NCBI GenBank assembly: GCA_964202905.1
Contig: CAXNJO010000004.1
Span: forward strand, 160,001 to 224,000
Source of the DNA: Polyangiales bacterium
GTDB lineage: Bacteria > Myxococcota_A > Polyangia > Polyangiales > JADJQN01
Direction: 5' to 3'
DNA length: 64,000 nucleotides
The position numbers and the translations under genes were made by a program. The notes under the pieces are model-generated. The model worked only from the letters and a program-made list of their open reading frames with translations. It was not told where the DNA came from and did no database searches. Positions 1-17,172 of this stretch are shown here, piece by piece (positions within the stretch are counted from its first letter, which is position 1; every line of letters begins with the position of its first letter).

Positions 1-852
1 CGTGAGCAGGCGCCCGTGCGCGGCCGGGAGCGACATCGTCGTGAGATCGCCCGCGATGTCCGAGCGGGTTCCCGACGCCGGGGTCCCCGCGTGCTGGCAG
101 CAGAGGTTGAGTCGGCCCTCGACGTCGACGTGGAGCGTGTCGCTGCGGAACGGGTCGCACACGTGGAAGCGCGCCGCCTTTGGAAAGCCCTCGGGCATCG
201 AGACGGGGACGGTGAGGACCGCGCTCAGCCGCTCGATGCGGTCGACGATGGCTGTCCACTCGTGCGCTGGGATGAAGAGCGCCGCGTCGAGCTTCGTGCC
301 CGTCGCCTGCAACCAGGCGAAGGAGACGCGCGCCGCGCCGAGCTGCGCGGCCTGGAACGCGAAGGCCTCGATCTCATGTCGGTTCTTCGCGTGGACGACC
401 ATCTGCAGCACGAACGGGATGCCGAGGCCCTCGCACGCCGCGATGGCCGACATGACCTCGCGAAAGCTGCCGGCGCCGCGGATCTCGTCGTGCACGCCCT
501 CGGTCGCGCCGTCGAGGGAGAAGTCGAGCATCGTCAACGCGGCACGTCGCGCGGGGGCCGCGGCGAGGCCGGCGATCACGAAGGGCATCTGCGAGCCGTT
601 CGTCACCATGTGCCACGACATGCCGTGTGCCGCGATGGCGTCGAGGACATGGAGGAACTGCGGATGGAGGGTGGGCTCGCCGCCCGTCAGTGCGACGTGC
701 TCGACCGCATACACGGTGCGCGCTTCGCCGAGGACGCGCTCGAGCACGGGCAAGGCCAGATCCCGCGGCTGCAGGCCGGGGTCGCGCAGGCAATGTTGGC
801 AGTTGAGATTGCAGCGATCCGTGAGGTGGAATGCGACCTGTCGCGATGTCAT
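1..852 (-). CDS. Radical SAM protein with start of a SPASM/Twitch-like domain (3' end runs off the window)
   Basis: Not in the ORF track because it has no stop in the window. Manual translation from ATG 852: MTSRQVAFHLTDRCNLNCQHCLRD (CxxxCxxC), then LTGGEPTLHP, VTNG, FSLDGATEGVHDEIRG, and later CDPFRSDTLHVDVEGRLNLCC. Confidence 0.9.
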   Translation of the reverse strand, partial: MTSRQVAFHLTDRCNLNCQHCLRDPGLQPRDLALPVLERVLGEARTVYAVEHVALTGGEPTLHPQFLHVLDAIAAHGMSWHMVTNGSQMPFVIAGLAAAPARRAALTMLDFSLDGATEGVHDEIRGAGSFREVMSAIAACEGLGIPFVLQMVVHAKNRHEIEAFAFQAAQLGAARVSFAWLQATGTKLDAALFIPAHEWTAIVDRIERLSAVLTVPVSMPEGFPKAARFHVCDPFRSDTLHVDVEGRLNLCCQHAGTPASGTRSDIAGDLTTMSLPAAHGRLLT

Positions 853-889
853 GGCCGCTTCTCTCGGACTGCTGCGAGCGCCCCGTGGC

Positions 890-1063
890 TCAGCCGCTCG
901 ACGTCAGGCCGGTCGCCGAGACGCCGCCGCCGCTGAAGAGCGTGGCCCGTTGCACGGAGCGCCGACGAAGGACCTTCGGGGCCTCGTAGGGACGGCGCGT
1001 GTCGGACGACGTCGTGGGCACGGGGGTCTCGCTCGGCGGTAGGGTGCGGTCGTTCGTGGTCAT
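890..1063 (-). CDS. Putative RiPP precursor peptide, 57 aa, with lasso-type leader
   Basis: Manual translation: MTTNDRTLPPSETPVPTTSSDTRRPYEAPKVLRRRSVQRATLFSGGGVSATGLTSSG*. GAGGAG lies just upstream. YxxPxV motif and a Thr at the expected -2 position. Sits among RRE, B2 peptidase and rSAM genes. Confidence 0.8.
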   Translation of the reverse strand: MTTNDRTLPPSETPVPTTSSDTRRPYEAPKVLRRRSVQRATLFSGGGVSATGLTSSG

Positions 1064-1141
1064 ACGCTCCTCGGGCCCGGAGTCCGTTGCGCGCGGACGG
1101 CGGCAGATTCAGCGCGCAGTTACCACGATACCGGGCCGGTG

Positions 1142-2116
1142 TCATCCCCACCCCCCGAGGCGGGTGCGGCGCACGAGCTCGCGCAGGGCGTGGACGCGCC
1201 GGCCGCGGGTGGCCACGCCCGCCGCGACGCGCTCGGCGAGGCGCTCGAGGCGCGTGCGGCCGAGCGCGAGCTGCCAAGCCGGTGACCAAGGCGCGTCGGG
1301 GGTGATCGCGTAGCCGAGAGCGGCGAAGCTCGGATCGCCGACGAAGGCGGCCGTGACACGGTGTCGGGCCTCGGCCGAGAGTTCGCGCCGCCACGCGTCG
1401 GCGCGGCTCGCATCGGGCGCGCGTCCAATCGCCGCCGCGCTGTACCAGGCGCCATCGGCGGCGAGGGCGGCGTCGTGCGCGCGGCGCTCGGGCGCGAGCG
1501 CGGCCTCGTCGAAGGGGACTTCGAGAAACGCGCAGACGCCCTCGGCCACGGTGCGCGGGGTGGTCGCGAGCTCTTCGAAGCGGACGAGCAGGGTGCGCCC
1601 GGGATGTGCGCGCCGCGCGGCGACCACGGCGTCGGTGCACTTCTTCACGGTGAAGATCGCTGACGCGAGGTCATGGGTCATCCACGGTGTGGGGCGTTGG
1701 AGGTGGCGCGCGCGGCGGCCGACCTCGAGCAGCGAGTGCACCGTCGCGCGGGGGTCGCGGACGCAGAGGACCATCCGCGCGTCGGGCAGCATGTCGAGGA
1801 GCGCGGGGGCTTCGAGGACATTCCACGGCGTCTTGTCGAGGAGCAGGCGGGCACTGCGCCGCGCGCCGTAGCCGTCGAGCAGGGCGCGGAGGTACTCGCC
1901 GCTCGCGCGGTCGATCGTGGCGCGGTCGAAATACACCGCGTGTCGTCCGGCTTCGACGCGCGCGAGGAGCGCGCCGCGGAGTCGGACCAGATCCGGGACG
2001 ACGTCGAGTTCGGGCCCGCTCGCGACGCCGGGAAGGCCATCGAGCATCGTCTGCAAGAGCGTCGAGCCGGTTCGAGGGGCGCCGGCAATGAAGGCGAAAC
2101 GGAGCGCGTCGCTCAT
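1142..2116 (-). CDS. PAPS-dependent sulfotransferase
   Basis: FIAGAPRTGSTLL (5'-PSB loop), DKTPWN, VRDPRATVHS (3'-PB), VRFEEL. Confidence 0.9.
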   Translation of the reverse strand: MSDALRFAFIAGAPRTGSTLLQTMLDGLPGVASGPELDVVPDLVRLRGALLARVEAGRHAVYFDRATIDRASGEYLRALLDGYGARRSARLLLDKTPWNVLEAPALLDMLPDARMVLCVRDPRATVHSLLEVGRRARHLQRPTPWMTHDLASAIFTVKKCTDAVVAARRAHPGRTLLVRFEELATTPRTVAEGVCAFLEVPFDEAALAPERRAHDAALAADGAWYSAAAIGRAPDASRADAWRRELSAEARHRVTAAFVGDPSFAALGYAITPDAPWSPAWQLALGRTRLERLAERVAAGVATRGRRVHALRELVRRTRLGGWG

Positions 2117-3087
2117 GGGACGCCTCCCGAGGCTGCGTCGATGCGCCGCCAGACGGCATGCGGATCGTCGAAGAAATCAGGGCCGGGGACGAGCGTGACC
2201 GTGGACGCTTGCGCCGCGAGAACGCCCAAGAGCGCGAAATGCGCCTGCCGCCATGGCAACCCCTCGGCAGCGAGCAGCGCGGACGACTCGAGGAGACCCG
2301 AGAACCCTTCGGCCGGCGCGACGCGCTCGACGTGCGTGCGCGGTGCGCGATCTGCGGAGATCAGGAGGATGCGGTCGACGTGCCGCGGCGACGACGGTGC
2401 AGGGGCGCGGCGGGCCTCGAGCCGTGCGGGCGCGATCTCGTCCCAGCCGAGGGCGCTGAGCCCCGGCAGGCGCGGCAGGGCCTCCGCAGACAGATGGAAA
2501 GGGCGCGGGAGCGGGGCGGCGATCGCGTGCCGATCGCCCTCGGAAAGCAGACAGGCGTCGTCGCTGAGCATGCTCAGCCCCGCCTCACCGAGCAGCGCGG
2601 TCGTGGTGCTCTTGCCCGCGCCGCTCGGTCCGACGAGGAGGAGCGTTTGCCCGTCGCGGGTCGCGCAGAGGCCGGCATGTACGTGGAAGCGCGCGTGCCA
2701 ACGGAGCGCGAGCACGAGCGCGATGTTCAGTGTCGTGCGGGCGAAGATGCCCCGCGGATCGAGCGCGGGCTCGGTGAGTGCGGCGTGGATGGCGCGGCCC
2801 CCGGGGTCGACGCGCACGCACGCCGAACCGTCTTCGACATGCAGTGCGCCGTCGTCGTCGGCGTGGACCTGCACGCGCCCGTGGAAGAACGACGCGACGG
2901 CGCTCGGCGCGCGCGGCGGGAGCGCCTCGACGAGCGCGAGGGATACGTGCGCGTGCGCCGGCTTGGCGCCGGGCATCGCGGGGGCAAGCGGGCCGAGGGG
3001 CGCGAACGCGGACTTCGGGATGCGCGCGTCGCGCGTGATGCGGAAGGTGATGTCCCCGAGGCGGAGGATGGGCAGATCGTGGGTCAT
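2113..3087 (-). CDS. HPr-kinase-related P-loop kinase
   Basis: HAG...LLLVGPSGAGKSTT...LSDD. ATGA overlaps with both neighbours; start taken as MTHDLP at 3087. Confidence 0.8.
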   Translation of the reverse strand: MTHDLPILRLGDITFRITRDARIPKSAFAPLGPLAPAMPGAKPAHAHVSLALVEALPPRAPSAVASFFHGRVQVHADDDGALHVEDGSACVRVDPGGRAIHAALTEPALDPRGIFARTTLNIALVLALRWHARFHVHAGLCATRDGQTLLLVGPSGAGKSTTTALLGEAGLSMLSDDACLLSEGDRHAIAAPLPRPFHLSAEALPRLPGLSALGWDEIAPARLEARRAPAPSSPRHVDRILLISADRAPRTHVERVAPAEGFSGLLESSALLAAEGLPWRQAHFALLGVLAAQASTVTLVPGPDFFDDPHAVWRRIDAASGGVP

Positions 3088-4085
3088 CGCCCGAGGAGCC
3101 GTCGGGCGTACGCGCTCGCCAGCGAGGTGGACGACGTGCCGGGCCGCGATGCACGCACGTAGCGCGGGTGGGGAAAGATCAGCCAGGGGAGTTGGGAGCG
3201 CTCGTGTCGGGCGATCTGCAACGCGCGCCGCAGGGAGCGCTCGGCGTGTCGCCACACCGACCCGCGCCGATCATCGGCGAGCGTTCGGGCGAGCGCGTCG
3301 GCGTCGCCGGCGTGCGCGGCCCGGGTGAGCGCCTCGAGGGTCGCGACGCCGCGTGCGGCGTGGGGATCGCGGACGATCGTGCGCCAGGTCGCGGCCGAGA
3401 CGTGCACGCGGACCGCACGCAGATCGAGCGCGTGGCGGAGCACGCCGCGGCGCGTGTCGTGATGGTGTCGTTCGACGTGTCGGCAGAGACCGACGGCGAT
3501 CGCGACGTTCGAGGGGATGCGGACCTCGCCGTGCGGCGTCGTGCACCGCTGCGTCTCGGCGAGCGGGCGTGCGACCACGTGGAGATCGACCGTCGCGCCG
3601 CCGGGCGCTTGCCAGACGCCGCCCGGCCACTCGTGGCCCGAGCGCACGTGCCCATCGTGTCGCAGCGTAGGGAGCAGGCGATGGCCCGTCGCCGCGAGCG
3701 CGCGCGTCGCGGCGGGGGCGTCTTCCCGCGTGACGAGCACGTCGACGTCCGACGCGTAGCGCGCGCCGGGCGCGAGCACGCCTGCGGCGAGGAGCGCGGC
3801 GCCCTTGACGACGACGGCCTGCGGGCACGCCGCGCAGATGGACGCGGCGCTTCGCAGCGAGAGGGCCGCGTGGACCGCGGCGTCTGCGCGTGCGTCGTCG
3901 AGCGCGTCGCGGACGTCGTCGGGGGCCTCGGGGAGAGCGTCAGCCAGGGAGGCGCGCAGCCCCTCGAGCACCGCGACACGTGCGGCCTCGGCGAGCACGG
4001 TCCGCCATCCCGCGTGCGTCGCCGGCGCAACGCCGAGAAGCAGCGCGCGGACCAGCGCGAGGCGCGCCTCCGGCGTCTCAGCCAT
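3084..4085 (-). CDS. Nucleotidyltransferase (NTP_transf_5-like, the type found in lasso and HPr-rel clusters)
   Basis: VVVKGAAL...RYASDVDVLV...VDLH signature. Confidence 0.8.
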   Translation of the reverse strand: MAETPEARLALVRALLLGVAPATHAGWRTVLAEAARVAVLEGLRASLADALPEAPDDVRDALDDARADAAVHAALSLRSAASICAACPQAVVVKGAALLAAGVLAPGARYASDVDVLVTREDAPAATRALAATGHRLLPTLRHDGHVRSGHEWPGGVWQAPGGATVDLHVVARPLAETQRCTTPHGEVRIPSNVAIAVGLCRHVERHHHDTRRGVLRHALDLRAVRVHVSAATWRTIVRDPHAARGVATLEALTRAAHAGDADALARTLADDRRGSVWRHAERSLRRALQIARHERSQLPWLIFPHPRYVRASRPGTSSTSLASAYARRLLGR

Positions 4086-4362
4086 GCGACACGACGACGA
4101 GCGCGTCCGCGATGAGGTCGTCGAGCAGCGCTGCGACGTCTCGCTCGGCGTCGGCTTCGGTGCACGCGAACTGCGCCACGAGCGTTGCCGTGAGCGTCGC
4201 GCGCGGTGCCTTGCCGGCCTGCAACACGCGAAACACGCGCGCTGCCGTCGTGTTCAGCGTGTAATAGAACTTCGTGTCGAGGTGCAGGAGCACCGCGGTG
4301 CCGTCCGGGAGATCCGTGGCGACGACGCGGTCGCTCGCCTGAAATTGAGGTGTGTCGCTCAT
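4078..4362 (-). CDS. PqqD-family RiPP recognition element (RRE, lasso B1-like), 94 aa
   Basis: AVLLHLDTKFYYTLNTTAARVF...AERDVAALLDDL, a typical stand-alone RRE. ATG overlaps the B2 stop (ATGA). Confidence 0.9.
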   Translation of the reverse strand: MSDTPQFQASDRVVATDLPDGTAVLLHLDTKFYYTLNTTAARVFRVLQAGKAPRATLTATLVAQFACTEADAERDVAALLDDLIADALVVVSHG

Positions 4363-4865
4363 GGTGTCGTTGGGCACGGGGGGACGCGGAGCAGGGGAGA
4401 GTACCCGGTTGTCTCGCGGTCGAGGACCGGGGTGCCATCGACCTCGGCCCATGCGTGGCACGGCCCGTCGAGGTCGTTCAGCGGGGCGCCGAGCACGAGC
4501 GCCGCGTCCCAGCCCAGGCGCCGCAAGAGCACGGTGCGGCCGACGGCCCGATCGAGGCAGTTCGGCGTGTGGCGCCCGGCCGTGAGCCCCGCGAGCGCGT
4601 CGGCGAGCCGCACCGCGGTGACCGCCTCCGGCCAGGGCCAGCGTGCGCTGCGCCGCACCCCGCGTGGATCGAGACGGGCGACGAGCGCATCGACGGGCGT
4701 ACGTGCGAGGAGCGGTCGAATCCGCCGCCGCGCGAGGACGTTGCCGACGACGACGCGCACGCCCGCGACGCCGTGCCGCCCCAGCCAGCCGAGGACCTCG
4801 TGGCGCAGCCGCGTCACGGGGAGAGCGTCGAGCCTGGGTGTGCGCGGGTCAAGGATCGACCGCAC
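4359..4865 (-). CDS. Lasso B2-type transglutaminase-like leader peptidase
   Basis: NCLDRAV...LLRRLG...LVLG...HAWAEVDG carries the catalytic Cys and His. GTG start at 4865, with GGAG 7 nt upstream, is inferred. Confidence 0.85.
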   Translation of the reverse strand: MRSILDPRTPRLDALPVTRLRHEVLGWLGRHGVAGVRVVVGNVLARRRIRPLLARTPVDALVARLDPRGVRRSARWPWPEAVTAVRLADALAGLTAGRHTPNCLDRAVGRTVLLRRLGWDAALVLGAPLNDLDGPCHAWAEVDGTPVLDRETTGYSPLLRVPPCPTTP

Positions 4866-5772
4866 GGAGGCACTCCACTGGATGACGTGGCGTGGTCGCG
4901 AGCGTGAGCCAGAGCGCGCCCTCGCCCGTCTGCACGAGGACGTGCGGCCCGCTTTGCGCGAGGACGCAGCCAGGGGCGGGGGCGTCCGCGGGCGCCGTGT
5001 GGTCGACGATGCGGGCCGCGAGCGCGCGTACGCGCCGCCCACGCGCGTCGCGGAAGTGTCCGCCGTTCGCTGCTTGGATCCGCCGGGCGACGTCCTGCGC
5101 CGCCCGGGTCAGATCAGGCTGGAGTTCGGCGCTGCGGGGCCGGGGCTCGAGCGCTCCGGTCGGCTGCGGGCGGGCTCTCTCGGGTGTGTCGCGGATCGCG
5201 GCGAGGATGCCGGGCAGCGCCGCCGCCGCGAGCCCGAGCAAGCGCTGCGTCAGGAGATCGCACGAGTCGCCCGGCAGGATGGGCGTCTCCTCGGCCCAGA
5301 GGATCGGGCCGGCGTCGAGCTCGGGCGTCATGCGATGCACGCTCACGCCCGTGGAGGCGTCGCCCGCGAGCAATGCGCGCTCGACGGGGCGTGGGCCGCG
5401 GTGGGCCGGGAGCAGCGACGGATGCACGTTCCAGCCGCCAAGTGGCAGACGCGACAGCACGGAGTCGGGGATTCTCACGGGGAAACCGGCGCAAATCAGG
5501 AGATCCGCCTGCGCCCGGAGCACCCGAGCCCAGTCCGCCTCGCCGCGGACGCGCACGACGGGCACCCCGATGCTGCGCGCGAGGCGTACGACGGCGGGGC
5601 GGCGTTGCGGGCGCAGCGCGTCGCGGGCGTCGCGCGCGACCTGACGCCATGGGCTCACCCCCGGCAGCACGCACGCGACCAGATCGTGCCCAGCGAGGCG
5701 CACCGCGTGTGCGACGACCACCGCGTGCCCCACGAACACGGCACGCAGGGCTCGGCGGAGGGGTGGGGTCAC
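4849..5772 (-). CDS. Formyltransferase (Fmt-like / sugar N-formyltransferase family)
   Basis: NVHPSLLPAHRGPRP...TGVSVHRM...LDAGPI. GTG start uncertain. Confidence 0.85.
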   Translation of the reverse strand: MTPPLRRALRAVFVGHAVVVAHAVRLAGHDLVACVLPGVSPWRQVARDARDALRPQRRPAVVRLARSIGVPVVRVRGEADWARVLRAQADLLICAGFPVRIPDSVLSRLPLGGWNVHPSLLPAHRGPRPVERALLAGDASTGVSVHRMTPELDAGPILWAEETPILPGDSCDLLTQRLLGLAAAALPGILAAIRDTPERARPQPTGALEPRPRSAELQPDLTRAAQDVARRIQAANGGHFRDARGRRVRALAARIVDHTAPADAPAPGCVLAQSGPHVLVQTGEGALWLTLATTPRHPVECLRAVDP

Positions 5773-5916
5773 CGTCCGCGAGTTTGACCCATCGGGACGT
5801 GGCGGCCATGCGCCTCCGCGCCGGGGCGGCGACGCCGCGATCGGGACGCGCGCGCCAACCGTCGAACGTGCACAGCTCCGTTGTGCCCGCGCCGAGTCCG
5901 GGATTAGAGTCGCGCC

Positions 5917-8088
5917 ATGGGCTTCCGAAGCTTGTTGCAAACGTCTTGCAGGGCGGGGCTCCTCGCGGCCTGCGTTGGGTCAGCAGGTTGCGCCAGCGAG
6001 CTGGTGCCACGCGTCGAGGCGATCTGCGACGGGGCGAGCGACTGCCTCGACGCCGATGTCGAAGCGCTCCTCGATGCGTCGGTCGACGCGGCGATCGGCG
6101 ACGACGCCGGTGCCTCCCCCGATGGCGGGGAACGCGGCGACGCCGGCAACGAGACCGCCGATGCGGCCGTGGTGGACGCGGAGTTGGGCGATGCGGCGCT
6201 CGCCGACGCCTCCGACGCAGCGGCCCCCGACGGAGGTTCTTCGGACGCGGGGCCCCCAGACGCCGGCCCTCCGGCGTGCACCTGGTCCCCGTACGGGGAG
6301 GGCATCACCGGCGGGCAGGTGAACTGGGCCGCGTTCGACCCTGCCGAGCCGGGACGCATCTGGGCGACGACCCCGACACAAGTCCTTCGCACGACAGCGG
6401 GCGCGACGTGGGCCGAGACCGGGCGTCCCGGGAGCTCGGTCACCAGCCTCGCGCTCCCTCGCGATGGGCTCCCCCTGATCGGCGCTTCGTCGGATGGTCT
6501 GCGTCGCTCCGACGATGACGGCGTCACCTGGCGCGCGGGCGCGCTGGGCGGGCTGTCCATCACGAGCGTCGTGCGCAGCCCCGCGGACCCCCGCGTGCTG
6601 TTCGCGACCACCAGCGGAGGCGGCTTCTTCATCTCGTCGGACGGTGGGACGGGCTGGCGCTCAGCCGGCTTCGGGCTCTCGCCGTCTGCGGTGCTGGCCG
6701 TGGCGCCCGACCCCCGGGGCGGGCGCGACGTGGTCGCCGGCGGCCCCTACCTCAACGCGACCGGGGGCTGGTCAGACACGGGCTTCCTCGCGCGCTCGTC
6801 GGACGGCGGTGTCACATACGCTGTCGTCTTCACCGAGACTGGACGCACCCAGGCGCTCGCACGCTGCCCCGGCGATCCGGACGTGCTCGTCTCCGCGCAC
6901 GTCTACGGCATGGCGCGCAGCCGCGACGGCGGTCGCACGTTCACGCGCATCGCGCCGACGGTCTTCGGCAACACGGGAGCTGTCGCGCTTGCGGGCGCTG
7001 CGTGCGAGACCGTCTACGCGACGCGCATCGGACAGGGCGTGATGCGCTCGCGCGATGGCGGGGACACGTGGGAGGGGCCGTTGCGAGAGGGCATGACGCT
7101 CGTCCCGGGTCAGACTCCCCGGGGCCTCAGCGTCGACCCCGCGGATCCGCGGCACGTCGTCGCGTCGTCGAGCGGCGGTCTGTTCGAGACCTTCGACGGC
7201 GGCGATCGTTGGACCCCTGTGCCCGGCATCGGCATCCCGGTGCTCCGTGCGGTGCGCGCGAGCGAAGCGGAGCCCGCGACGCTGTGGCTCGCGACTTGGG
7301 GGCTCGGCGTGTGGATGCGACCGCCGGGCGATGTCTGGCGCTTCGTCTCCGGCGTCCCGCGCGATCTCGTGAACTCCGTGCGCGAGGACGCCGAAGGCCG
7401 CGTCTTTTCCATGGGATATCGGTCGCCCGACCGCGTGGCGTTCACGAACCCCGGGCCGATGGGCAACGTGTTCGACGTCGCCACCGATCCGGGTGCGCCG
7501 GACGTCGTGTGGGCGGTCACGCAGACACTCGGCATCTGGCGCTCCTCGAACGGCGGCGTGACCTTCACGCAGGCGAACGGCGGCCTCGCGCCGTGGGTGA
7601 CGCCCGTGGGCACGTTCGTCGACGCGCGGTCCGTCCTGGTGACCGCGGGCGCCGTGCTCGTCGGCACGCAGGGGCGTGGTGTGGCGAGAAGCACCGACGA
7701 CGGCGCGTCGTTCGCCCTCGACCCGTCCGGGGACGGGCGACGGATCAGCTGCCTCGAGTCGCTCGGCGACGCGGGCGTCGTCGCCTGTGTGAGCGCGGCC
7801 GACCCCGGCTTCCTGCTCTCGCGCGACGCAGGGCTCACGTGGAGCCCATGGAACGATGGGCTCGCGTCGCTCGACGTCGCAGGCATCGTGCGTGACCCCC
7901 GGACGGGGTCGGTCTACGCGACGACCTCGGAAGGCGTCTACGTGCGGGGCGTGGACCGATGGGAGCCCGTCGAGCCGGGCTGTCTCCAGCCCGGTCTTGG
8001 CGCACCGACGGTCCAGCGCGACGGCGACGGACGCTCGTACCTCGTCGTCCCGGCGCCGGAAGCCCTGCTCGTGCGCCGCCCGATCTGA
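5917..8088 (+). CDS. Lipoprotein with BNR/Asp-box beta-propeller repeats
   Basis: Lipobox-like VGSAGC, Asp/Ala/Gly linker, and many SxDGGxTW repeats. Confidence 0.8.
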   Translation: MGFRSLLQTSCRAGLLAACVGSAGCASELVPRVEAICDGASDCLDADVEALLDASVDAAIGDDAGASPDGGERGDAGNETADAAVVDAELGDAALADASDAAAPDGGSSDAGPPDAGPPACTWSPYGEGITGGQVNWAAFDPAEPGRIWATTPTQVLRTTAGATWAETGRPGSSVTSLALPRDGLPLIGASSDGLRRSDDDGVTWRAGALGGLSITSVVRSPADPRVLFATTSGGGFFISSDGGTGWRSAGFGLSPSAVLAVAPDPRGGRDVVAGGPYLNATGGWSDTGFLARSSDGGVTYAVVFTETGRTQALARCPGDPDVLVSAHVYGMARSRDGGRTFTRIAPTVFGNTGAVALAGAACETVYATRIGQGVMRSRDGGDTWEGPLREGMTLVPGQTPRGLSVDPADPRHVVASSSGGLFETFDGGDRWTPVPGIGIPVLRAVRASEAEPATLWLATWGLGVWMRPPGDVWRFVSGVPRDLVNSVREDAEGRVFSMGYRSPDRVAFTNPGPMGNVFDVATDPGAPDVVWAVTQTLGIWRSSNGGVTFTQANGGLAPWVTPVGTFVDARSVLVTAGAVLVGTQGRGVARSTDDGASFALDPSGDGRRISCLESLGDAGVVACVSAADPGFLLSRDAGLTWSPWNDGLASLDVAGIVRDPRTGSVYATTSEGVYVRGVDRWEPVEPGCLQPGLGAPTVQRDGDGRSYLVVPAPEALLVRRPI

Positions 8089-8117
8089 CGTGACAGGGTC
8101 GGCCCTCCGGAGGGCAG

Positions 8118-9086
8118 ATGGCGGACTTCGCACTCGTCGGCGCGGCAGGATTCGTGGCGTCGCGGCACATGCGCGCGATCGCGGAGACGGGTCACCAGCT
8201 CGTGGCCGCGCTCGATCCCAAGGACAGCGTCGGCATCCTCGATTCCTACTTCCCGGATGCCCACTTCTTCGTGGAGTTCGAGCGCTTCGATCGGCACATC
8301 GACAAACTCCGACGCCGTGGGACGCCCGTGTCCTACGTGAGCATTTGCTCACCCAACTACTTGCACGATTCGCACATCCGCTTCGGTCTCCGCAGCGACG
8401 CGCACGTCATCTGCGAGAAGCCGCTCGTCCTCAATCCGTGGAACGTCGACGGCCTCGAGGAGCTCGAGCGCGAGAGCGGGCGCCACGTCTACAACGTGCT
8501 GCAGCTTCGGCTCCATCCGGCCATCCGCGCGCTTCGCGACGCCTACGCCGCGCGCATCGCGGCGGATCCTTCCACGTGCGCCGACATCGAACTGACCTAC
8601 GTCACGAGCCGCGGTCGCTGGTACCATGCGTCCTGGAAGGGCGACGAGGAGAAGTCGGGCGGCATCGCCACCAACATCGGCGTGCATTTCTTCGACATGC
8701 TCCAGTGGATCTTCGGGCCCGTGAAAGAGAGCGCCCTGCACCTCGCGACGGGCGAGACGGCGGCCGGGCATCTCGAACTCGCGCACGCCCGCGTCCGCTG
8801 GCTGCTCAGCATCGACGCCCGTGTCCTGCCTGAGACGGCGCGCGCGGGCGGCAAGCGTACCCACCGTTCGGTCCGCGTCGACGGCGACGAGTTCGAGTTC
8901 AGCGACGGCTTCACCGATCTCCACACGGCGACCTACCGGGACATCCTCGCGGGCGGCGGCTTTCGCGTGGGCGAGGCCCGTCAGGCCATCCAGATGGTCC
9001 ACGACATCCGCCACGCGCGCGTAGATCGCGATCGCGGCGCGCTCCATTCCCTGCTGGCTCACCGCGATGCCATCCGCACCGCGTGA
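8118..9086 (+). CDS. wbpB: Gfo/Idh/MocA oxidoreductase, WbpB-like UDP-GlcNAcA 3-dehydrogenase
   Basis: FALVGAAGFVASRHMRAI, ICSPNYLHDSHIRFGL, ICEKPLVLNPWN, SGGIATNIGVHFFD, EFSDGFTDLH. Confidence 0.85.
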   Translation: MADFALVGAAGFVASRHMRAIAETGHQLVAALDPKDSVGILDSYFPDAHFFVEFERFDRHIDKLRRRGTPVSYVSICSPNYLHDSHIRFGLRSDAHVICEKPLVLNPWNVDGLEELERESGRHVYNVLQLRLHPAIRALRDAYAARIAADPSTCADIELTYVTSRGRWYHASWKGDEEKSGGIATNIGVHFFDMLQWIFGPVKESALHLATGETAAGHLELAHARVRWLLSIDARVLPETARAGGKRTHRSVRVDGDEFEFSDGFTDLHTATYRDILAGGGFRVGEARQAIQMVHDIRHARVDRDRGALHSLLAHRDAIRTA

Positions 9087-9284
9087 ATACGGCGTCGCCG
9101 GGCCCGTCGTGACGCGGGGCACCGAGCCGACCCCGGCGCGAAATCCTGAGACGATCGCCCCCGGATCGTGGCCGCGCACGGCGCATGGCGAGGGCAGGTC
9201 CGGGACGTCGTCCGCCTGCGCTGGCCGGCCGTCTTTCAGACTCGGCGGGCGCTCGCGCGCCATCGTGACGCTCGCCTGGGGCGC

Positions 9285-10787
9285 ATGAAACTGCTCGGTG
9301 CGCTCACCTCGTCGGCCGTCTTCCACGTCGCGAGCATGGTCAACGGGCTCGCGACCGTGCCGCTCTTCTTGAGCGCATTCGGGCGCGAGAACTACGGATT
9401 CTGGGCGGCGCTGCTCGGCACGACTGCCTACCTGTCACTGCTCAACTTCGGCGTGGCGCAGACCGTCTCGAGCGGCGCATCGAGAGCCGCGCGTGACGAC
9501 GCGGCGGCGGTACCGCGTCTGATCGGATTCGGCTTTCGGTTCTACCTTCGGGTAGGCGTCGTCGCGCTGCCGACGGCGATCGTCGTGGGACTCGCGTGCC
9601 CGTGGGCGGCCTGGTTCGGACTCGATGCGAGCCGGGACGTCGAGAGCCGACTGACCGCCGCCGCCGTGTTTGGCAGCTTCATCGTGGAACTCCCCTTCTC
9701 CGTGCTGAGGGCCGCCCTGTACGGTGCGGGAGAGGTCACCCAGGAGCGGTTGCTCGGGGTCGGTGCGATCGTGCTGCGGGTGGCTGCCGCCGCGGTCTTC
9801 GCGGTGACACAACCGGCCCTCTGGCTGGGCGTTCTGGTGTTGTCCGCCATCAACCTCACGAGCGCGGTCGCGGCGTTCGCGCTCCTTCAGCGTCGATTTC
9901 CGGCGCTCTGGTCATCGTTGCGGGCACCTCGGAGCGCCGAGCAGGTCGTCGAGGCAGCCGCGATGCGACCGCAGAGCGTCAACTACTTCGTCCTGCAAAT
10001 CGCCGGGGCCATCGTCTGGTCCACCGATGCGCTCCTCACGGGGTTCATGCTCGGCGCGGGGGCAGCGGCGGAGGTGTCCGCGGCGTGGCGCGTCATCAGC
10101 ATCGTGTTGTCGCTCGGGGGGGTCGTCGTTCCTGCGGTCGCGCCCACGCTCGCGCGCGTGTGGGCGGAGGGCGACACGGCGCGTTCGGTGGCGCTCGCCA
10201 CGGACACCGCGCAGGTCGTGTTCGCGTTGCTCCTCGCCGGGACGCTCGGCGCCGCTGCGGCTGGCGAGGCAATCTTCGCGTTGTGGCTGGGCCCGGACAT
10301 GTTTGCGGGGCGAGGCGCGTGGCTCGCCTACTGCCTCATCGTCGTCGTGCAGGCGATGCTCGTCGTGCCCGAAGCGTTCGTAACGCAGACGGGGCGCCAT
10401 TCCGCCTACGCGCGGGCGACCCTCGTCGAAGCCGCGATCAAGCTGGCCCTCAGCCTCGCGCTGATGCGCGCGTTCGGCCTGATCGGGTTGCCGCTCGGGA
10501 CGCTCATCGGACGTTGCACGACGACGTTCTGGATCGTCTTGCGCTCCTTCGGCGAGGCCACGGGCCAATCGTGGGGACGCTGGCTCGCGCGGGTGATTCG
10601 GCCATCCGTGATTCCGGCCGTGGGGTTCGTGGTCGTCTTCGGCTGCGGACGCTGGGTCATCGGCGAAGGCAGCGCCTCGACGGTGTTCGCGCTGGGGACC
10701 GCGAGCGGAGTGGTCTACGTTGTCCTGTATGCCTTGACGGGACTGCCGGACGCGGTCCGCGCCAGGCTGATGAGGAGCCGAACATGA
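9285..10787 (+). CDS. Wzx-like polysaccharide flippase
   Basis: About 12 hydrophobic segments and FGRENYGFW; polysaccharide-locus context. Start uncertain. Confidence 0.75.
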   Translation: MKLLGALTSSAVFHVASMVNGLATVPLFLSAFGRENYGFWAALLGTTAYLSLLNFGVAQTVSSGASRAARDDAAAVPRLIGFGFRFYLRVGVVALPTAIVVGLACPWAAWFGLDASRDVESRLTAAAVFGSFIVELPFSVLRAALYGAGEVTQERLLGVGAIVLRVAAAAVFAVTQPALWLGVLVLSAINLTSAVAAFALLQRRFPALWSSLRAPRSAEQVVEAAAMRPQSVNYFVLQIAGAIVWSTDALLTGFMLGAGAAAEVSAAWRVISIVLSLGGVVVPAVAPTLARVWAEGDTARSVALATDTAQVVFALLLAGTLGAAAAGEAIFALWLGPDMFAGRGAWLAYCLIVVVQAMLVVPEAFVTQTGRHSAYARATLVEAAIKLALSLALMRAFGLIGLPLGTLIGRCTTTFWIVLRSFGEATGQSWGRWLARVIRPSVIPAVGFVVVFGCGRWVIGEGSASTVFALGTASGVVYVVLYALTGLPDAVRARLMRSRT

Positions 10788-11743
10788 CCTCGATTCCCAT
10801 GCTCGCGCCGCTCGATCCGCGGGTTCCGCGGTGGGACGCCAACGCCCTCGAACCCCGCCGCTGCCCGCTCTGCTCCGGGGCGGGAACACCCCGGTTCCGT
10901 CGCCCCGACGCCCTCGTCGTCCGCTCGTGCGTGTGTGGAACGTGGTTCGTCTCTCCGGCGCCGAGCCCCGCGGCGCTCGACGCGTTCTACCGCACGTACA
11001 CCGCTGTTCACCGCGCCGGCTCGGTGGAGCGCCAGCGCGAGGCCATCCGGGCACACCGTCCTGAGGATTCGCTGCTCCTGACCGAGCTCGGGAGCGTCGG
11101 TCCGCTGGCGGGCAAGCGCGTCCTCGACGTCGGCTGTGGACTCGGCGTGTTCCTTCACCTCCTCGACCGCGTCGGTGCGGAGCCCTACGGCGTCGACCTC
11201 GATCCGGGAAGCGTCGCCTTCGCGACGACGCACCTCGGCCTGTCTCGGGTGCAACTCGGGACGATCGTCGACGTCGGGGCGCGGGCGTTCGACATCCTCA
11301 CGATGCTCGACTTCATCGAACATCCCCTCGACGTCGGGACGACCCTCGAGCGCGCCCACGCGCTGCTCGCGCCGGGCGGGATCCTCGCCCTTTGGACGCC
11401 CAACGCGACGGGATTCGATCGTGATCCCAACCCCGTCGCGCTCCGCATGGACCTCGAACACATGCAGTACTTCTCGTGCGCGAGCATCGCCGAGATCGGA
11501 CGGCGGTTCGACTTCACGACAGTTCACCTCGAGACCCTCGGGAGCGCGGCGCCCGTCGCCGGGCGCTCAGTCGGCCACGCACCACTCGTCCAACGCACGC
11601 TCGAGAGCGCGAAGCGGACCGCCCGCGCCCTGGAGCGACGCGCCGGCCTGGCCGGATTGCGGGGCAGGTGGATGAAGAAGGCGGAGCGCTGGACGGAGCG
11701 GCGTGGCGATTACCACTTGATGGCGCTTCTCCAGAAACGCTGA
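10784..11743 (+). CDS. Class I SAM-dependent methyltransferase with N-terminal Cys motif
   Basis: CPLC...CVC, VLDVGCGLG, FIEH. ATGA overlap and GAGGAG upstream. Confidence 0.85.
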   Translation: MTSIPMLAPLDPRVPRWDANALEPRRCPLCSGAGTPRFRRPDALVVRSCVCGTWFVSPAPSPAALDAFYRTYTAVHRAGSVERQREAIRAHRPEDSLLLTELGSVGPLAGKRVLDVGCGLGVFLHLLDRVGAEPYGVDLDPGSVAFATTHLGLSRVQLGTIVDVGARAFDILTMLDFIEHPLDVGTTLERAHALLAPGGILALWTPNATGFDRDPNPVALRMDLEHMQYFSCASIAEIGRRFDFTTVHLETLGSAAPVAGRSVGHAPLVQRTLESAKRTARALERRAGLAGLRGRWMKKAERWTERRGDYHLMALLQKR

Positions 11744-11854
11744 ACAACGCGCGTCCGCGCGCCCATCGTCCGCCGGGGCGCACTGCACGACGGAAACGAC
11801 GCGGGCGCTGCCGCGCTCCGAGGAGCGAAGCAGCGCCCGACGAACGATCGAGCC

Positions 11855-13889
11855 TCAGTTTCGAACGAAGTAGACGTCGGTGTTCCCGGTGTCGAAGGCA
11901 GTCGTGCCATCGATGCTGAGCACCGAGGAGGTCGTCTCGAAGGTGGTCCACTCGCCATTGCGGCTGATGGAAACGACCGGTGAGAGTGGCGTCACGGACG
12001 TGATGCCCACGGCCGACGCGCCCTCGCCATTGCGCGACATGAGTCGGGTCGTCCCCGTGCAGCGGTCCCGCATGTAGCTGGCCTCGCCGACGGTCGTACC
12101 GTCGAACGCGCCGTTCGACCGGAACACGGTACGACAGCCGTTCGACGACACCCTCGCGACCGTGCTCAGCGAACCCCCCGTCTGCGCGCCCGCGGAGTTC
12201 ACGGAGAGGATCGACATGGTCCCGGGCGTCGACAGGCCACCGACGATGGCGCCCGAGGGAACGAACTGGAACACGTCGGTCGACGCGTTCGTGTCCGCGA
12301 TGCCCTGCGAGCAGGTCGAGTGGAACACGACCGTCGTTCCGTCGCCGGAGATCGACGGGCTGAGAGGCTCCAAGCAATTCGTCGTGATGCGGGTCGTCGT
12401 GCTGGCGGACACCACACGGAGGAACACGTCGCGCGATCCGGGGGGTGTCCCCGCTCGCGAGGTTGACCGTGTTGGAGTCGAACACGACGCGGTTTCCATC
12501 GTCGCTGATGGACGCGCGCAGGGAGACGTTCCGATTGCTGCTCTCGGGGGGAGCCACTCCGGCTCCACCCATCAGCGTGCTGCCCGTCGCGCCGTTCGCC
12601 ACCGAGATGCTCGTGGTGGTCCCGGCAGACCGGTCCTTGCGGTACACCTGCGCGCGGCCGTTGATGCAACCCGCCGTGATGTTCGCCGCGCTCGGTGCGG
12701 TTGTGCTCTGACCGCACAGGCGCGCGCACGTCGAGTCGAAGGCGACGAAGCGGCCGTTCGCGCTGATCGAGGGGCGGAATGCACCGACCCCCTGGAGCGG
12801 GGCCGCGGTCGGCGAAGTGGGCGCGCAGAATGCCGGGATGGTGCCCGAGGTCGTGGTGCTCACGCCGGTCGTCGTCCCCGCCGTGATGTCGCGCGCGAAG
12901 ATGTCGGACGCTGCGTTCGCGTCCGACGGGACCATGTCGGTCGCCGTGGACGCGAAGACCACGATGTTCCCGTCGCTGCTGAGGCAGGGGGTCGTCGCGT
13001 CGCCGGTCGTCGTGATGGCACCGGTGCTGCGGAAGCTGACGAGGACGAGGCCGCCGGTGGTCGTGTCGTACCGGTAGACGTCGCTTCGGCTGTTCGTATC
13101 CGTCGAGACGAGCGGAAGGGAGGTCGAGAACACCGAGAAGCGTCCGTCATCCGTGATGCAGCCAACGCGCGCGTCGCCCGCCTGCTTGCGCCCCTGCTCG
13201 TCGAGCGACGCGATGGACGGCGCGTTCGGGCCGCCCGCCGTCTGGACCGTCGCGAAGACCTTACCCTTGAACGTGAAGCTCGTCGACGTCGGCTGGCGGA
13301 AGCGCCAGCGGCGCTGCGTCACGAAGCGGGTGAAGCCAGCGGCGTTCGGCTCGAGGGTCCCGTACCGCCAGAGGCCGCGCGTCGCGTCGAGCCCGAGCGT
13401 CGTGCTCGTGGCGCCTCCGTAGCCCTCGAACCCTGCGGTGATTTCCGTGATCTGCGAGTAGGCGTTGCTCAGGTGCCGGGTCGCGAAGAAGTGGCGCAGG
13501 TCCACGTCTCCGAAGAAGCAGTTGGGTGCCCCACCGGGGATGGCGCCGCACTCGGCGCTGCCCGCAGCGCGCGTGCCGGAGGCGACGGTGATCAGCTCCG
13601 CGGTGTCCGCGGGGCCGCTGCCGGTCATGCCGTCCTTGACCACCGTCACCTCGGTCAGCGGATCGCGCGCGCCGGCGATCTCACTCGCGCCGCGGAGGGC
13701 GCCGTCGTCCAAGAAGCGCAGCGTCATCGTCCCGGACGCGACGTCCACGGTGCCCTCGAAGTCGAGGACGACCGTGTCCGGGTCCGCCTCGAGGCTCCAC
13801 GTGGACTCCGGTCCCCCTTCGCTCGCGCAACCCGAGGCGGCGCAGGTCAGCGCGGCGACAACAGCGAAAATGGACGATATTCGACGCAT
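11855..13889 (-). CDS. Lipoprotein with TolB/PD40-like beta-propeller repeats; frameshifted near 12445
   Basis: Lipobox AASGC and repeats such as PSISANGRFVAF and DTNSRSDVY. The reading frame switches at a G6 run (12440-12445) and continues SRDVFLRV...TDVYFVRN*. Confidence 0.75.
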
Positions 13890-14064
13890 GATCACGAACC
13901 TCCAGGGCGACGCTCGGCGAGGAGCGCGCGTAAGTTTCAGGAGTATACGGGCCGGTCTCGCGTTCACCAAGGGGGTCGGTTGCAAATTCGCGGCGCACCG
14001 TTCATCGGATGTGTCGTTGCCGCGTCGTGGAGGAGCGCAGCCGGCGTGCTAGCGTCCCGCAGAC

Positions 14065-15207
14065 ATGGTTCCCCCCGCACGGCGCCTCGTCTACCTCGCG
14101 CCGGGGCTCTTCGACTTCGGCGGCATCGCGCGCTACGGCCGCTACCAGCTGCGAGCCCTTCGAAGCGTCGGCGGCGACCGCGTGCGTGCCGCGTCGCTGC
14201 TCGGACCGAGCGCGGACGCCTCGTTCGCGGAAGCCGTCGAGGTCGATTACATCGCCGGAGGGAACGGCCGTCGTCATAAGGCCGCGTTCACGGCGCGCGC
14301 AGCCGCCTGGGCCCGGCCGGGCGCGCTCGTGTGGTGCGGGCACCTGCACTTCGCCCCGCTCGGACTCGGTCTGGCCGCCGCGGTCGGCGGCACGTGCGTC
14401 GTCAACGTGTACGGACTCGAAGTGTGGTCCGCCCGTCGCCGAGCCGCCCTCGCGGCCCTCGGGCATGTCGAGGTCGTGTCCGATTGCCACGCCACGGCCG
14501 ACCACCTCGTCTCGAACGGGATCGTCCGCCCGGACCGCATCCGCGTCATCTGGGACCCGGTTGACGTCCGCTTTTCCCCCGGCTCCGTCGACCCCGCGAT
14601 CGAGGCCCGCTACGGCCTCACCCCGACGTCCTTCCGCGTCATGTTCCTCGGGCGCCTCTCGGCCGGAGCGGCGCACAAGAGCCCGGATGCGTTGATCCGG
14701 GCGTTCGCGGCCGCAAGGCTCCCAGCGGACGCCCAGCTGGTGATCGCCGGGGCAGGGGATCGGCGACCGGCACTCGAGGCGCTCGCGGCGGAGCGGGGAT
14801 GCGCGGGTCGGGTCGTCTTTGCCGGACGCGTCGCGGACGAGGACCTGCCGGGTCTTTACCGATCGGCGTCGTTGTTCGTGCTCGTCAGCCGGAAATACGA
14901 TGGAGGCGGGGAGGGCCTGCCGCTCACCCCGATCGAGGCCGCGGCGTGCGGCGTGCCGATCGTCGTGGGCGACGAGGATGGCTCGCGCGAAGCCGTGCGG
15001 GACGGCGAGACCGGTTTCCTCGTGCGTTCCCGCGAGGACGCCGCGCTCGTGCGGGTGCTGGAAGACGCGGCCGCCGATCCGAACAGACTTCGCGGCCTCG
15101 GGGCCGCCGCTGCGCGCGACGCACACGAGCGTTTCTCCTACGCGCGCTTCGAGCGTCAGCACCGCGCGCTGATCGAGGCGATTGACGCCGGGAATGTCGG
15201 GCGATGA
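14065..15207 (+). CDS. Glycosyltransferase family 4
   Basis: GGIARY, FLGRL, EGLPLTPIEAAACGVP. Confidence 0.9.
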   Translation: MVPPARRLVYLAPGLFDFGGIARYGRYQLRALRSVGGDRVRAASLLGPSADASFAEAVEVDYIAGGNGRRHKAAFTARAAAWARPGALVWCGHLHFAPLGLGLAAAVGGTCVVNVYGLEVWSARRRAALAALGHVEVVSDCHATADHLVSNGIVRPDRIRVIWDPVDVRFSPGSVDPAIEARYGLTPTSFRVMFLGRLSAGAAHKSPDALIRAFAAARLPADAQLVIAGAGDRRPALEALAAERGCAGRVVFAGRVADEDLPGLYRSASLFVLVSRKYDGGGEGLPLTPIEAAACGVPIVVGDEDGSREAVRDGETGFLVRSREDAALVRVLEDAAADPNRLRGLGAAAARDAHERFSYARFERQHRALIEAIDAGNVGR

Positions 15208-17167: not shown

Positions 17168-17172
17168 GCACC

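Follow-up and report, generated by a model that had tools for sequence, protein, structure and literature searches.

Organization of the operon

The window analysed here is the whole 64,000-nucleotide stretch of Polyangiales DNA corresponding to C4:160001-224000 of the source genome (label G000), and the system under study is a group of genes at its left end encoding a small precursor peptide, a lasso-type machinery for leader recognition and removal, a radical S-adenosylmethionine (SAM) enzyme and several transferases. The left flank was also fetched (C4:145001-165000, locus label L001). The list of open reading frames (ORFs) and Pfam searches placed all of these genes on the minus strand. 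Eight of them were co-oriented, in the 5'-to-3' order formyltransferase, B2 peptidase, RRE (recognition element for RiPPs, peptides that are made by ribosomes and modified after translation), nucleotidyltransferase, HPr-kinase-like protein, sulfotransferase, precursor and radical SAM enzyme, with the following features.

4849..5772, minus strand: formyltransferase (Fmt/ArnA-like, with N- and C-terminal domains); Formyl_trans_N 5.3e-27, Formyl_trans_C 7.2e-05
4359..4865, minus strand: lasso-type B2 leader peptidase (transglutaminase-like Cys protease); Transglut_core3 4.2e-11
4078..4362, minus strand: discrete RRE (PqqD family, lasso B1-like); PqqD 1.1e-11
3084..4085, minus strand: PF14907 nucleotidyltransferase; NTP_transf_5 2.2e-13
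2113..3087, minus strand: HPr-kinase-like P-loop kinase; Walker A GPSGAGKST, sub-threshold HprK_rel_A
1142..2116, minus strand: sulfotransferase similar to protein-tyrosine sulfotransferases (TPST-like); Sulfotransfer_3 8.5e-29
890..1063 (stop codon included), minus strand: precursor gene, 57 amino acids (aa); ORF with GAGGAG Shine-Dalgarno sequence upstream
938..1063, minus strand: predicted leader, residues 1-42; YEAP motif at 977-988, Thr41 at -2
893..937, minus strand: predicted core FSGGGVSATGLTSSG, 15 aa; candidate phosphosite Ser44 at 932-934
1..852, minus strand: radical SAM enzyme, first 284 of 356 codons; Radical_SAM 8.5e-21, gene end at C4:159785

The likely start codons were GTG at 5772 for the formyltransferase, the frame of which is open as far as 5940, and GTG at 4865 for the B2 peptidase, followed by ATG at 4362 (RRE), 4085 (nucleotidyltransferase), 3087 (kinase), 2116 (sulfotransferase), 1063 (precursor) and 852 (radical SAM enzyme). 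With these starts, the first six genes, from the formyltransferase to the sulfotransferase, were joined by five overlaps of 17, 4, 8, 4 and 4 nucleotides. Three of these were of the ATGA type, and the RRE start overlapped the B2 stop in this way. The gene order, the common orientation and the overlap of six genes described in the initial annotation were thus borne out by ORFs, Pfam matches and starts, and the eight genes constitute an intact, translationally coupled operon. As had been anticipated, the operon continued past the left edge, where the radical SAM gene extended for another 216 nucleotides and was followed on the same strand by genes for a class-I methyltransferase, a family 4 glycosyltransferase (GT4) and a family 2 glycosyltransferase (GT2).

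The G+C content of the region was approximately 73%. A scan of positions 1-6200 gave neither sigma-70-like promoters nor intrinsic terminators, which is uninformative at this G+C content, and the RNA folds of the two intergenic spacers were no more stable than those of shuffled sequences (z +1.05 and +0.83). A plus-strand ORF of 660 aa at 3805..5787 was rejected as a gene, being an antisense shadow of four Pfam-supported genes that is typical of high-G+C DNA. The genome was 94.5% complete, and every gene of the cassette, including that of the precursor, was present in a single copy.

Precursor peptide, leader and core

A homologous ORF bearing the recognition motif was located directly upstream of the radical SAM gene in 25 of the 28 related loci examined, the three loci in which no such ORF was found being L090, L097 and L099. 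L007 also has a homologous precursor ORF. In the alignment of 22 precursors, Tyr26 and Pro29 were invariant, Thr41 and Leu42 were conserved in at least 90% of the sequences, and about 20 of them had Ser or Thr aligned with Ser44. The comparison with the closest relative, L087, the radical SAM enzyme of which was 81% identical to that of the window, identified 19 synonymous and only one non-synonymous codon differences in residues 22-57, along with 2 synonymous and 13 non-synonymous differences in residues 1-21. This pattern indicated selection on the recognition motif and the core and not on the N-terminus, and the precursor is, on the evidence of these alignments, a real gene.

The leader is predicted to be cleaved after Thr41-Leu42 according to the rule for lasso B2 peptidases. 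The core FSGGGVSATGLTSSG contained neither Asp nor Glu and ended in Gly, and an acidic residue at core positions 7-9 was found in only one of the 22 precursors (that of L016). The cores were 13-18 aa long in the family of the window and varied greatly across loci, with FFGxF-type, Met/Gly-rich and Gly/Ser/Thr-rich sequences. In the lineage of the window they lacked Cys, Trp, Tyr, Lys, Asp and Glu. The cores of the sulfotransferase-bearing lineage were unusually rich in Ser and Thr and lacked the Met found in other cores.

At the leader end, the non-myxobacterial precursors were of the type F-I-E-P-K-L-T-K-H-G-D-A-T-x-I-T-G, that is F-17, P-14, L-12, G-8 and T-2, a spacing that is canonical for lasso leaders. 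Cores such as GFFGSFAPYE and GFFGTFTPNNLS in these precursors were likewise incapable of forming a 7-9-membered lasso ring. Lasso leaders carry a YxxP motif and a penultimate Thr, as described in the parts of the literature consulted (PMC12710340, PMC10368454). A second point of reference is provided by the linear polyphosphorylated peptides (LPPs) of Bacillota, made by LppA/K/B/S/D/N (Popov et al., Nat Commun 2026, PMC13381572); according to the main text of that report, the LPP leader has the consensus YxxPxVLxHQxIxFETxxS and is cut after Thr, and Ser at core position 3 is polyphosphorylated by the kinase. The window motif YEAPKVLRRRSVQRATLFS matched this consensus at Y1, P4, V6, L7, T16 and S19; at position 12 it had Val where the consensus has Ile, and H9, Q10, F14 and E15 were unmatched. 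The spacing of Ser44 from the motif Tyr was the same as that of the phosphorylated Ser3 in LPP.

In the precursors of L026, L029, L036 and L039, which lie upstream of the kinase gene, the recognition motif was present in tandem (type F-x-EPKL-x-F-IEPKLT) before a Phe-rich FFGxF-x-P core.

Lasso-type leader machinery without a lasso cyclase

The solved sequences nearest to the RRE were the lasso B1 proteins TbiB1 (5v1u, 4.8e-07) and TfuB1 (6jx3). The trimmed B2 sequence just attained the cut-off of the NCBIfam model lasso_biosyn_B2 (NF033537), with 33.6 against 33 bits, and Cys103 and His137 were invariant and one acidic residue nearly invariant among 14 homologues. A search of PDB sequences with the B2 profile gave nothing significant. 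The whole genome contained one Transglut_core3 gene and one RRE. A predicted complex of the RRE and the precursor scored 0.44 against 0.35 for the control, which speaks neither for nor against binding. Among the features that define a lasso system, the locus thus had a B2 peptidase with catalytic Cys and His, and a PqqD-type RRE together with a leader carrying YxxP and the penultimate Thr, binding between the two being predicted. The RRE relatives, the B2 score and the leader signature Y..P.[VL] with Thr at -2 support a lasso-type origin of the leader machinery. Some related loci had a second PqqD-family gene (L016, 13207-13488 and 14379-14660), and at 7743-8984 L099 encoded a protein of 413 aa that ends in a PqqD domain and has a GlcNAc-type glycosyltransferase and a 2OG-Fe(II) oxygenase as neighbours.

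The remaining lasso features were absent, as there was neither a PF00733 cyclase in the cluster nor an Asp/Glu ring acceptor at core positions 7-9. Pfam searches detected no Asn_synthase in the operon part of the window or in the 15 kb to its left, and no second or canonical precursor was present left of position 1. The only Asn_synthase homologue in the genome was encoded on another contig (C11). It passed the AsnB model (367.8 against a cut-off of 267.1 bits) and failed the lasso-cyclase model (207 against 525), so that it was rejected as a candidate lasso cyclase. The related loci that were annotated, 12 from myxobacteria, 11 from other phyla and 4 from metagenomes (27 in total), likewise contained no Asn_synthase among 138, 120 and 58 neighbour proteins, respectively. 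The absence of a visible cyclase, the core free of acidic residues and the radical SAM gene after the precursor, all remarked upon in the initial annotation, were accordingly verified, and the cyclase or further precursors that it had considered possible beyond the left edge were not found in the 15 kb fetched. The profile searches it had suggested gave matches to PqqD, Transglut_core3 and NTP_transf_5 and none to SPASM, with the sole Asn_synthase lying on C11.

Kinase and nucleotidyltransferase

The kinase-like gene had only P-loop matches in Pfam. Against the NCBIfam model HprK_rel_A it gave 7.7e-10 and 38 bits, below the cut-off of 200. Its homologues in related loci matched Pfam Hpr_kinase_C, and tblastn connected the window kinase to those homologues. 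The PF14907 family was also found in the cassettes of related loci. The kinase P-loop, the sulfotransferase motif for 3'-phosphoadenosine 5'-phosphosulfate and the formyl-transfer motif were all kept in the translations. A kinase and a nucleotidyltransferase act together in the phosphoglycosylation of the lasso peptide pseudomycoidin, as the available part of that report describes (PMC8498205). In several Polyangia-type loci the PF14907 domain was part of much longer proteins (593-808 aa as called; L008 7186-9612, L010 5461-7266 and L093 7890-9671), the remainder of which had no Pfam match.

Radical SAM enzyme

Residues 14-21 of the radical SAM enzyme form the CxxxCxxC motif, and five other Cys residues (C232, C251, C252, C310 and C313) were invariant as well. 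The enzyme showed no Pfam SPASM match and had no fused RRE, and would therefore rely on the discrete RRE. Its nearest solved sequences were PqqE (6c8v, 3.8e-16) and SkfB. The scores against NCBIfam models were all below the cut-offs: 81.4 of 400 for ScmF, 67.2 of 400 for ScmE, 52.4 of 400 for GeoRSP_rSAM and 57.7 of 381 for PqqE. The AlphaFold model (pLDDT 84.8) matched BlsE, PqqE, SuiB, CteB, SkfB, viperins, DesII and anSME about equally, and relatives working on peptides and on sugars were not resolved by the fold search. These results establish the class of the enzyme; as for its chemistry, possible candidates are epimerisation, an ether or C-C link involving the conserved core segment [FLV]-[ST]-x-[MG]-G, or a reaction on a phospho-linked sugar. 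The known thioether, Lys-Trp, Glu-Tyr and similar links are ruled out in the subfamily, as the cores in the lineage of the window lack Cys, Trp, Tyr, Lys, Asp and Glu. Of the precursor's partners, the radical SAM enzyme is the most conserved.

Spread of the cassette

Homologues of the radical SAM enzyme formed more than 120 clusters at an identity of at least 52%, the named ones being from Polyangium, Minicystis and Byssovorax. From related genomes and metagenomes, 79 and 80 loci, respectively, were fetched. The tblastn searches and the Pfam annotation of neighbours identified a recurring set of precursor, radical SAM enzyme, PqqD, Transglut_core3, HPr-kinase-like protein and NTP_transf_5, and scoring with local HMMs gave the following numbers of loci (HPr-kinase-like, PqqD, B2, nucleotidyltransferase).

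Close radical SAM subfamily, at least 4 kb on both sides (n = 13): 12, 12, 12, 9
Distant radical SAM subfamily, at least 4 kb on both sides (n = 25): 21, 24, 15, 19
All loci of any length (n = 76): 60, 58, 44, 38

According to the record titles, the loci belonged to Myxococcota, Acidobacteriota, Nitrospira, anammox Planctomycetota, Desulfosarcina, Gemmatimonadota and Competibacteraceae; the titles also name two strains with homologous loci, Polyangium jinanense SDU13, the source of L009, and Polyangium aurulentum. Within its own phylum the radical SAM family was rare and patchy, with 12 of 401 genomes positive at E <= 1e-60, the source genome included. Among 41 genomes (40 relatives and the source), three matched at 1e-20, namely the source, G027 (full-length, 49% identity) and G026 (partial). 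An ORF with an ABC_tran match (approximately 530-810 aa as called) was located nearby in L008, L010, L011, L012, L013, L016, L057, L093 and L102. In L014 (9796-11020) only the precursor and the radical SAM enzyme were present; the 10 kb flanking them on each side lacked RRE, B2, kinase and nucleotidyltransferase genes.

Accessory transferases and the exopolysaccharide setting

The nearest solved relative of the formyltransferase was the Met-tRNA formyltransferase 1fmt (3.6e-22), followed by ArnA. The sulfotransferase was closest to protein-tyrosine sulfotransferases (8w5z, 1.6e-16), yet the core contained no Tyr. The surroundings of the operon were rich in polysaccharide genes. To the right, the region of approximately 5.9-33.3 kb was an exopolysaccharide locus with GT4s, a second sulfotransferase, a GDP-mannose dehydratase, Wzy_C, a Wzz/GNVR tyrosine-kinase-type protein, a carbamoyltransferase, a WecA-like priming transferase and UDP-glucose dehydrogenases. 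On the left, convergent polysaccharide genes for an epimerase, a Wza-type exporter, a porin and a DegT aminotransferase followed the GT2. As the operon lies inside this locus, the sulfotransferase and the formyltransferase may serve sugars; the peptide, a glycan attached to it and the exopolysaccharide are all candidate substrates of the sulfo-, formyl-, methyl- and glycosyltransferases.

The synteny with L087 extended past the operon, with a BNR protein and a GFO oxidoreductase on one side and the epimerase, Wza, porin and DegT genes on the other. L087 lacked the methyltransferase and the GT2, and L088 had a methyltransferase. Several further genes were observed in this setting. The second sulfotransferase (Sulfotransfer_1, 1.4e-28; 15204-16016, plus strand) directly followed a GT4 in the exopolysaccharide locus, and its presence there suggested that the polysaccharide itself is probably sulfated. 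A 723-aa protein with BNR/sortilin repeats was encoded at 5917-8088 on the plus strand, divergent from the operon, and the same protein, followed by a GFO/IDH/MocA oxidoreductase, flanked the operon in L087. Three long ORFs with coding-like G+C content at third codon positions and no Pfam match at 1e-5 were found in the middle of the polysaccharide locus: 9168-10787 (plus strand, 539 aa), 11514-13985 (minus strand, 823 aa) and 16765-18714 (plus strand, 649 aa).

Proposed pathway and alternative explanations

Taken together, the gene content and its conservation suggest that the operon probably specifies a cyclase-less, lasso-derived pathway for an LPP-like linear phospho(glyco)peptide, with B2 cleavage and a radical SAM step. 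In this pathway, the PqqD-type RRE would bind Y26-x-x-P29-x-V31-L32 of the precursor and present it to the other enzymes. The HPr-kinase-like enzyme would then phosphorylate a hydroxyl group of the core, for which Ser44 is the likeliest site, since it stands where LPP has its polyphosphorylated Ser3. The PF14907 enzyme may add a sugar or a nucleotide-derived group to the phosphate, as in pseudomycoidin, and the PqqE-like radical SAM enzyme may perform a radical modification on the RRE-bound peptide or on its attached group. Finally, B2 would cut the leader after Thr41-Leu42, freeing the 15-residue core. In this lineage, the coupled formyltransferase, TPST-like sulfotransferase, methyltransferase and two glycosyltransferases might decorate a peptide-linked glycan or serve the exopolysaccharide pathway.

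Several observations weigh against this proposal. All of its steps, including the phosphosite, the cleavage site and the radical SAM reaction, are drawn from homology. The assignment of the kinase depends on weak sequence signals (the P-loop, and 38 against 200 bits for HprK_rel_A), and its search against PDB sequences gave only P-loop and ABC matches and no HPr kinase. Many family members have Thr instead of Ser at the candidate phosphosite, and in LPP the change S3T abolished phosphorylation, according to the main text of the LPP report (PMC13381572). The best fold match of the radical SAM enzyme was BlsE (7vob, TM 0.63), a sugar-nucleoside enzyme, with DesII also ranking high, leaving a peptide substrate unproven. 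The formyltransferase and the sulfotransferase recurred only in L087 (56% and 72% identity), where gene order and stop/start coupling were both retained, and the synteny far beyond the operon makes L087 an orthologous locus, not independent evidence. The local models used for the cassette counts were built from members of the same loci in which they were then counted. No ABC_tran match was found in the operon of the window or its flanks, though relatives have one, and with a genome completeness of 94.5% an unassembled cyclase is conceivable.

That last point bears on the reading of the operon as an ordinary lasso cluster, with the cyclase, and perhaps a canonical precursor, elsewhere in the genome or unassembled. 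The B2 peptidase, B1-like RRE, leader with YxxP and Thr at -2, kinase, nucleotidyltransferase and sulfotransferase are indeed all known from paeninodin-type clusters, as far as the portions of the reports consulted describe them (PMC8498205, PMC4289311). This reading was nevertheless largely refuted and is very improbable, since the sole Asn_synthase is an AsnB that fails the lasso-cyclase model, the genome has one B2, one RRE and one precursor, 21 of the 22 precursors, including that of the window, have no acidic residue at positions 7-9, and none of the 27 related loci encodes an Asn_synthase. A rather different possibility is that the radical SAM enzyme leaves the backbone and side chains of the peptide alone and, in the manner of BlsE and DesII on sugars, decarboxylates, dehydrates or epimerises a sugar or nucleotide that the kinase and the nucleotidyltransferase have placed on the phospho-serine; the chief role of the peptide would then be to carry or prime a glycan whose synthesis involves the neighbouring exopolysaccharide genes. 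In addition to the fold matches to BlsE and DesII, this is favoured by the co-occurrence of radical SAM enzyme, kinase and PF14907 across phyla while the cores differ greatly, by a GT4 located directly after the radical SAM gene or after the methyltransferase gene in L087 and the window, and by the position of the window and 5 of the 12 myxobacterial loci among Wzz/Wzy/DegT-type genes. LPP and paeninodin clusters are also located in capsule loci, and LppN seemingly needs an outside partner or substrate, according to the main text of PMC13381572. We nonetheless consider it unlikely, because the peptide maturases PqqE, SuiB, CteB and SkfB matched nearly as well, the precursor gene is immediately upstream of the radical SAM gene in Myxococcota, L014 combines precursor and radical SAM enzyme without a kinase or nucleotidyltransferase, and most non-myxobacterial loci have no polysaccharide context.

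The extent of the peptide pathway is a separate matter. It is quite possible, although we do not favour it, that only the six-gene core of precursor, radical SAM enzyme, RRE, B2, kinase and nucleotidyltransferase belongs to the pathway and that the other transferases are exopolysaccharide genes sharing the transcript. Formyltransferase, sulfotransferase, methyltransferase, GT4 and GT2 genes of the type in the window were found beside the radical SAM gene in none of the 79 genome loci (tblastn, 1e-5), and among 21 metagenome loci only L087 and L088 had any such transferase (1e-4), the agreement with the former being attributable to common descent as it is syntenic beyond the operon. The nearby DegT aminotransferase, together with ArnA as the second solved relative of the formyltransferase, fits formamido sugar synthesis, and a second sulfotransferase is present in the polysaccharide locus. 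On the other hand, the overlaps between formyltransferase and B2 and between kinase and sulfotransferase are kept at 53-72% protein identity, the nearest solved relatives of the sulfotransferase act on peptides, and the cores of the lineage bearing it are unusually rich in Ser and Thr and free of Met. A bolder idea, to which we assign a low likelihood, is that the peptide, instead of being a free natural product, is a ribosomally produced anchor to which a glycan is attached: the kinase and the PF14907 enzyme would link a sugar to Ser44 through a phosphodiester, the radical SAM enzyme would remodel this sugar much as BlsE acts on a nucleoside sugar, the coupled GT4, GT2, methyl-, sulfo- and formyltransferases would extend and decorate it, and the phosphoglycopeptide released by B2 would prime, cap or regulate the exopolysaccharide. 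Such a role would account for the presence of cyclase-less, lasso-derived cassettes in capsule and exopolysaccharide loci of Bacillota and Myxococcota.

The pathway for a linear, lasso-derived phospho(glyco)peptide agrees with the proposal in the initial annotation that lasso leader recognition and removal has been reused in a different peptide class, a view supported by the conservation of the precursor with the enzymes and by the lack of a canonical precursor or cyclase beside the window. The notion of a heavily decorated product held for the kinase and the nucleotidyltransferase, which are part of the conserved core, and less so for the sulfo- and formyltransferases, which recur only in L087 and belong to an operon inside an exopolysaccharide locus. 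If the proposal is correct, the combination of lasso RRE and B2 with a PqqE-like radical SAM enzyme, a kinase and a nucleotidyltransferase would define a separate RiPP family, widespread in at least 76 related loci of about seven phyla (by record titles), the product of which is undescribed. It would extend linear phosphopeptides beyond Bacillota and add an uncharacterised radical reaction on cores without Cys, many of which also lack aromatic residues. As the cassette is found repeatedly in exopolysaccharide loci, the question raised by LPP and paeninodin, namely a role in capsule or biofilm formation, would become directly testable, and the named, sequenced strains with homologous loci would allow genetics if culturable.

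Comparison with known systems

Literature searches returned papers on lasso peptides and LPP and no description of this architecture, their coverage excluding most subscription journals and the supplementary files of PMC13381572. The text of the RRE-Finder paper contained no mention of kinase, nucleotidyltransferase, transglutaminase, PF14907 or PF13471. The initial annotation knew of no characterised product; this still applies to the form with radical SAM enzyme and B2, whereas a cyclase-less linear analogue, LPP, was published in 2026 (PMC13381572). The idea of reuse thus has a precedent, and the form with radical SAM enzyme and B2 is absent from the text of that report.

As far as the main text of the LPP report describes it, the present system shares with LPP the lack of a macrolactam cyclase, a discrete RRE with an HprK-like kinase and an NTP transferase, a YxxP leader with the same Thr/Ser spacing, a capsule or exopolysaccharide setting and a patchy distribution. 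LPP clusters have no cyclase and, like paeninodin clusters, lie in capsular polysaccharide loci, and deletion of the NTP transferase was without effect in a heterologous host, where LppN seemed to need an outside partner or substrate (PMC13381572). The differences from LPP, as far as that text goes, are also marked. LPP uses an SpI-like (SipW-type) peptidase, while a B2 peptidase is found here, and no member of the signal-peptidase family was among the Pfam matches of the operon, its left continuation and the next 28 kb. A radical SAM enzyme is present here, and the word "radical" does not occur in the text of PMC13381572. LPP cores are 35-200 aa long with variable C-termini, compared with 13-18 aa here; LPP is reported only in Bacillota, and the present family is found in Myxococcota and other Gram-negative phyla; and the LPP core cluster includes an MsbA-like export pump, none being encoded in the operon of the window. 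From these comparisons, the system appears to work like LPP, yet it is not an LPP member.

With paeninodin and pseudomycoidin, in the parts of the reports consulted, the operon has in common split B1 (RRE) and B2 proteins, an HPr-kinase homologue, a nucleotidyltransferase, sometimes a sulfotransferase, and a YxxP leader with penultimate Thr (PMC8498205, PMC4289311). Those systems have an Asn-synthetase-like cyclase and an Asp/Glu acceptor, and their kinase acts on a C-terminal Ser (PMC8498205). Here, in contrast, a cyclase and an acidic residue are both lacking, the core ends in Gly, and the cassette includes a radical SAM enzyme. Like the PqqE/PqqD and SkfB/SuiB/CteB maturases, the radical SAM enzyme has no fused RRE and adjoins a discrete PqqD-family protein and a small precursor. 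It differs from PqqE and SPASM maturases in its score (57.7 against 381 bits), the absence of a SPASM match and its only five auxiliary Cys residues, and since the cores lack Glu and Tyr, which PqqA has, and, within this subfamily, Cys, which sactipeptides have, neither of the known cross-links is possible. Related family models of PqqD, HPr kinase and radical SAM proteins had been mentioned in the initial annotation, and the SynChlorMet, HPr-rel-A and GeoRSP models did match, although all far below their cut-offs. The operon resembles the NCBIfam SynChlorMet (ScmC/D/E/F), HPr-rel-A and GeoRSP cassettes in combining a radical SAM enzyme with a PqqD-family and an HPr-kinase-like protein, and is set apart from them by these scores, as with 18.5 against 125 for ScmC.

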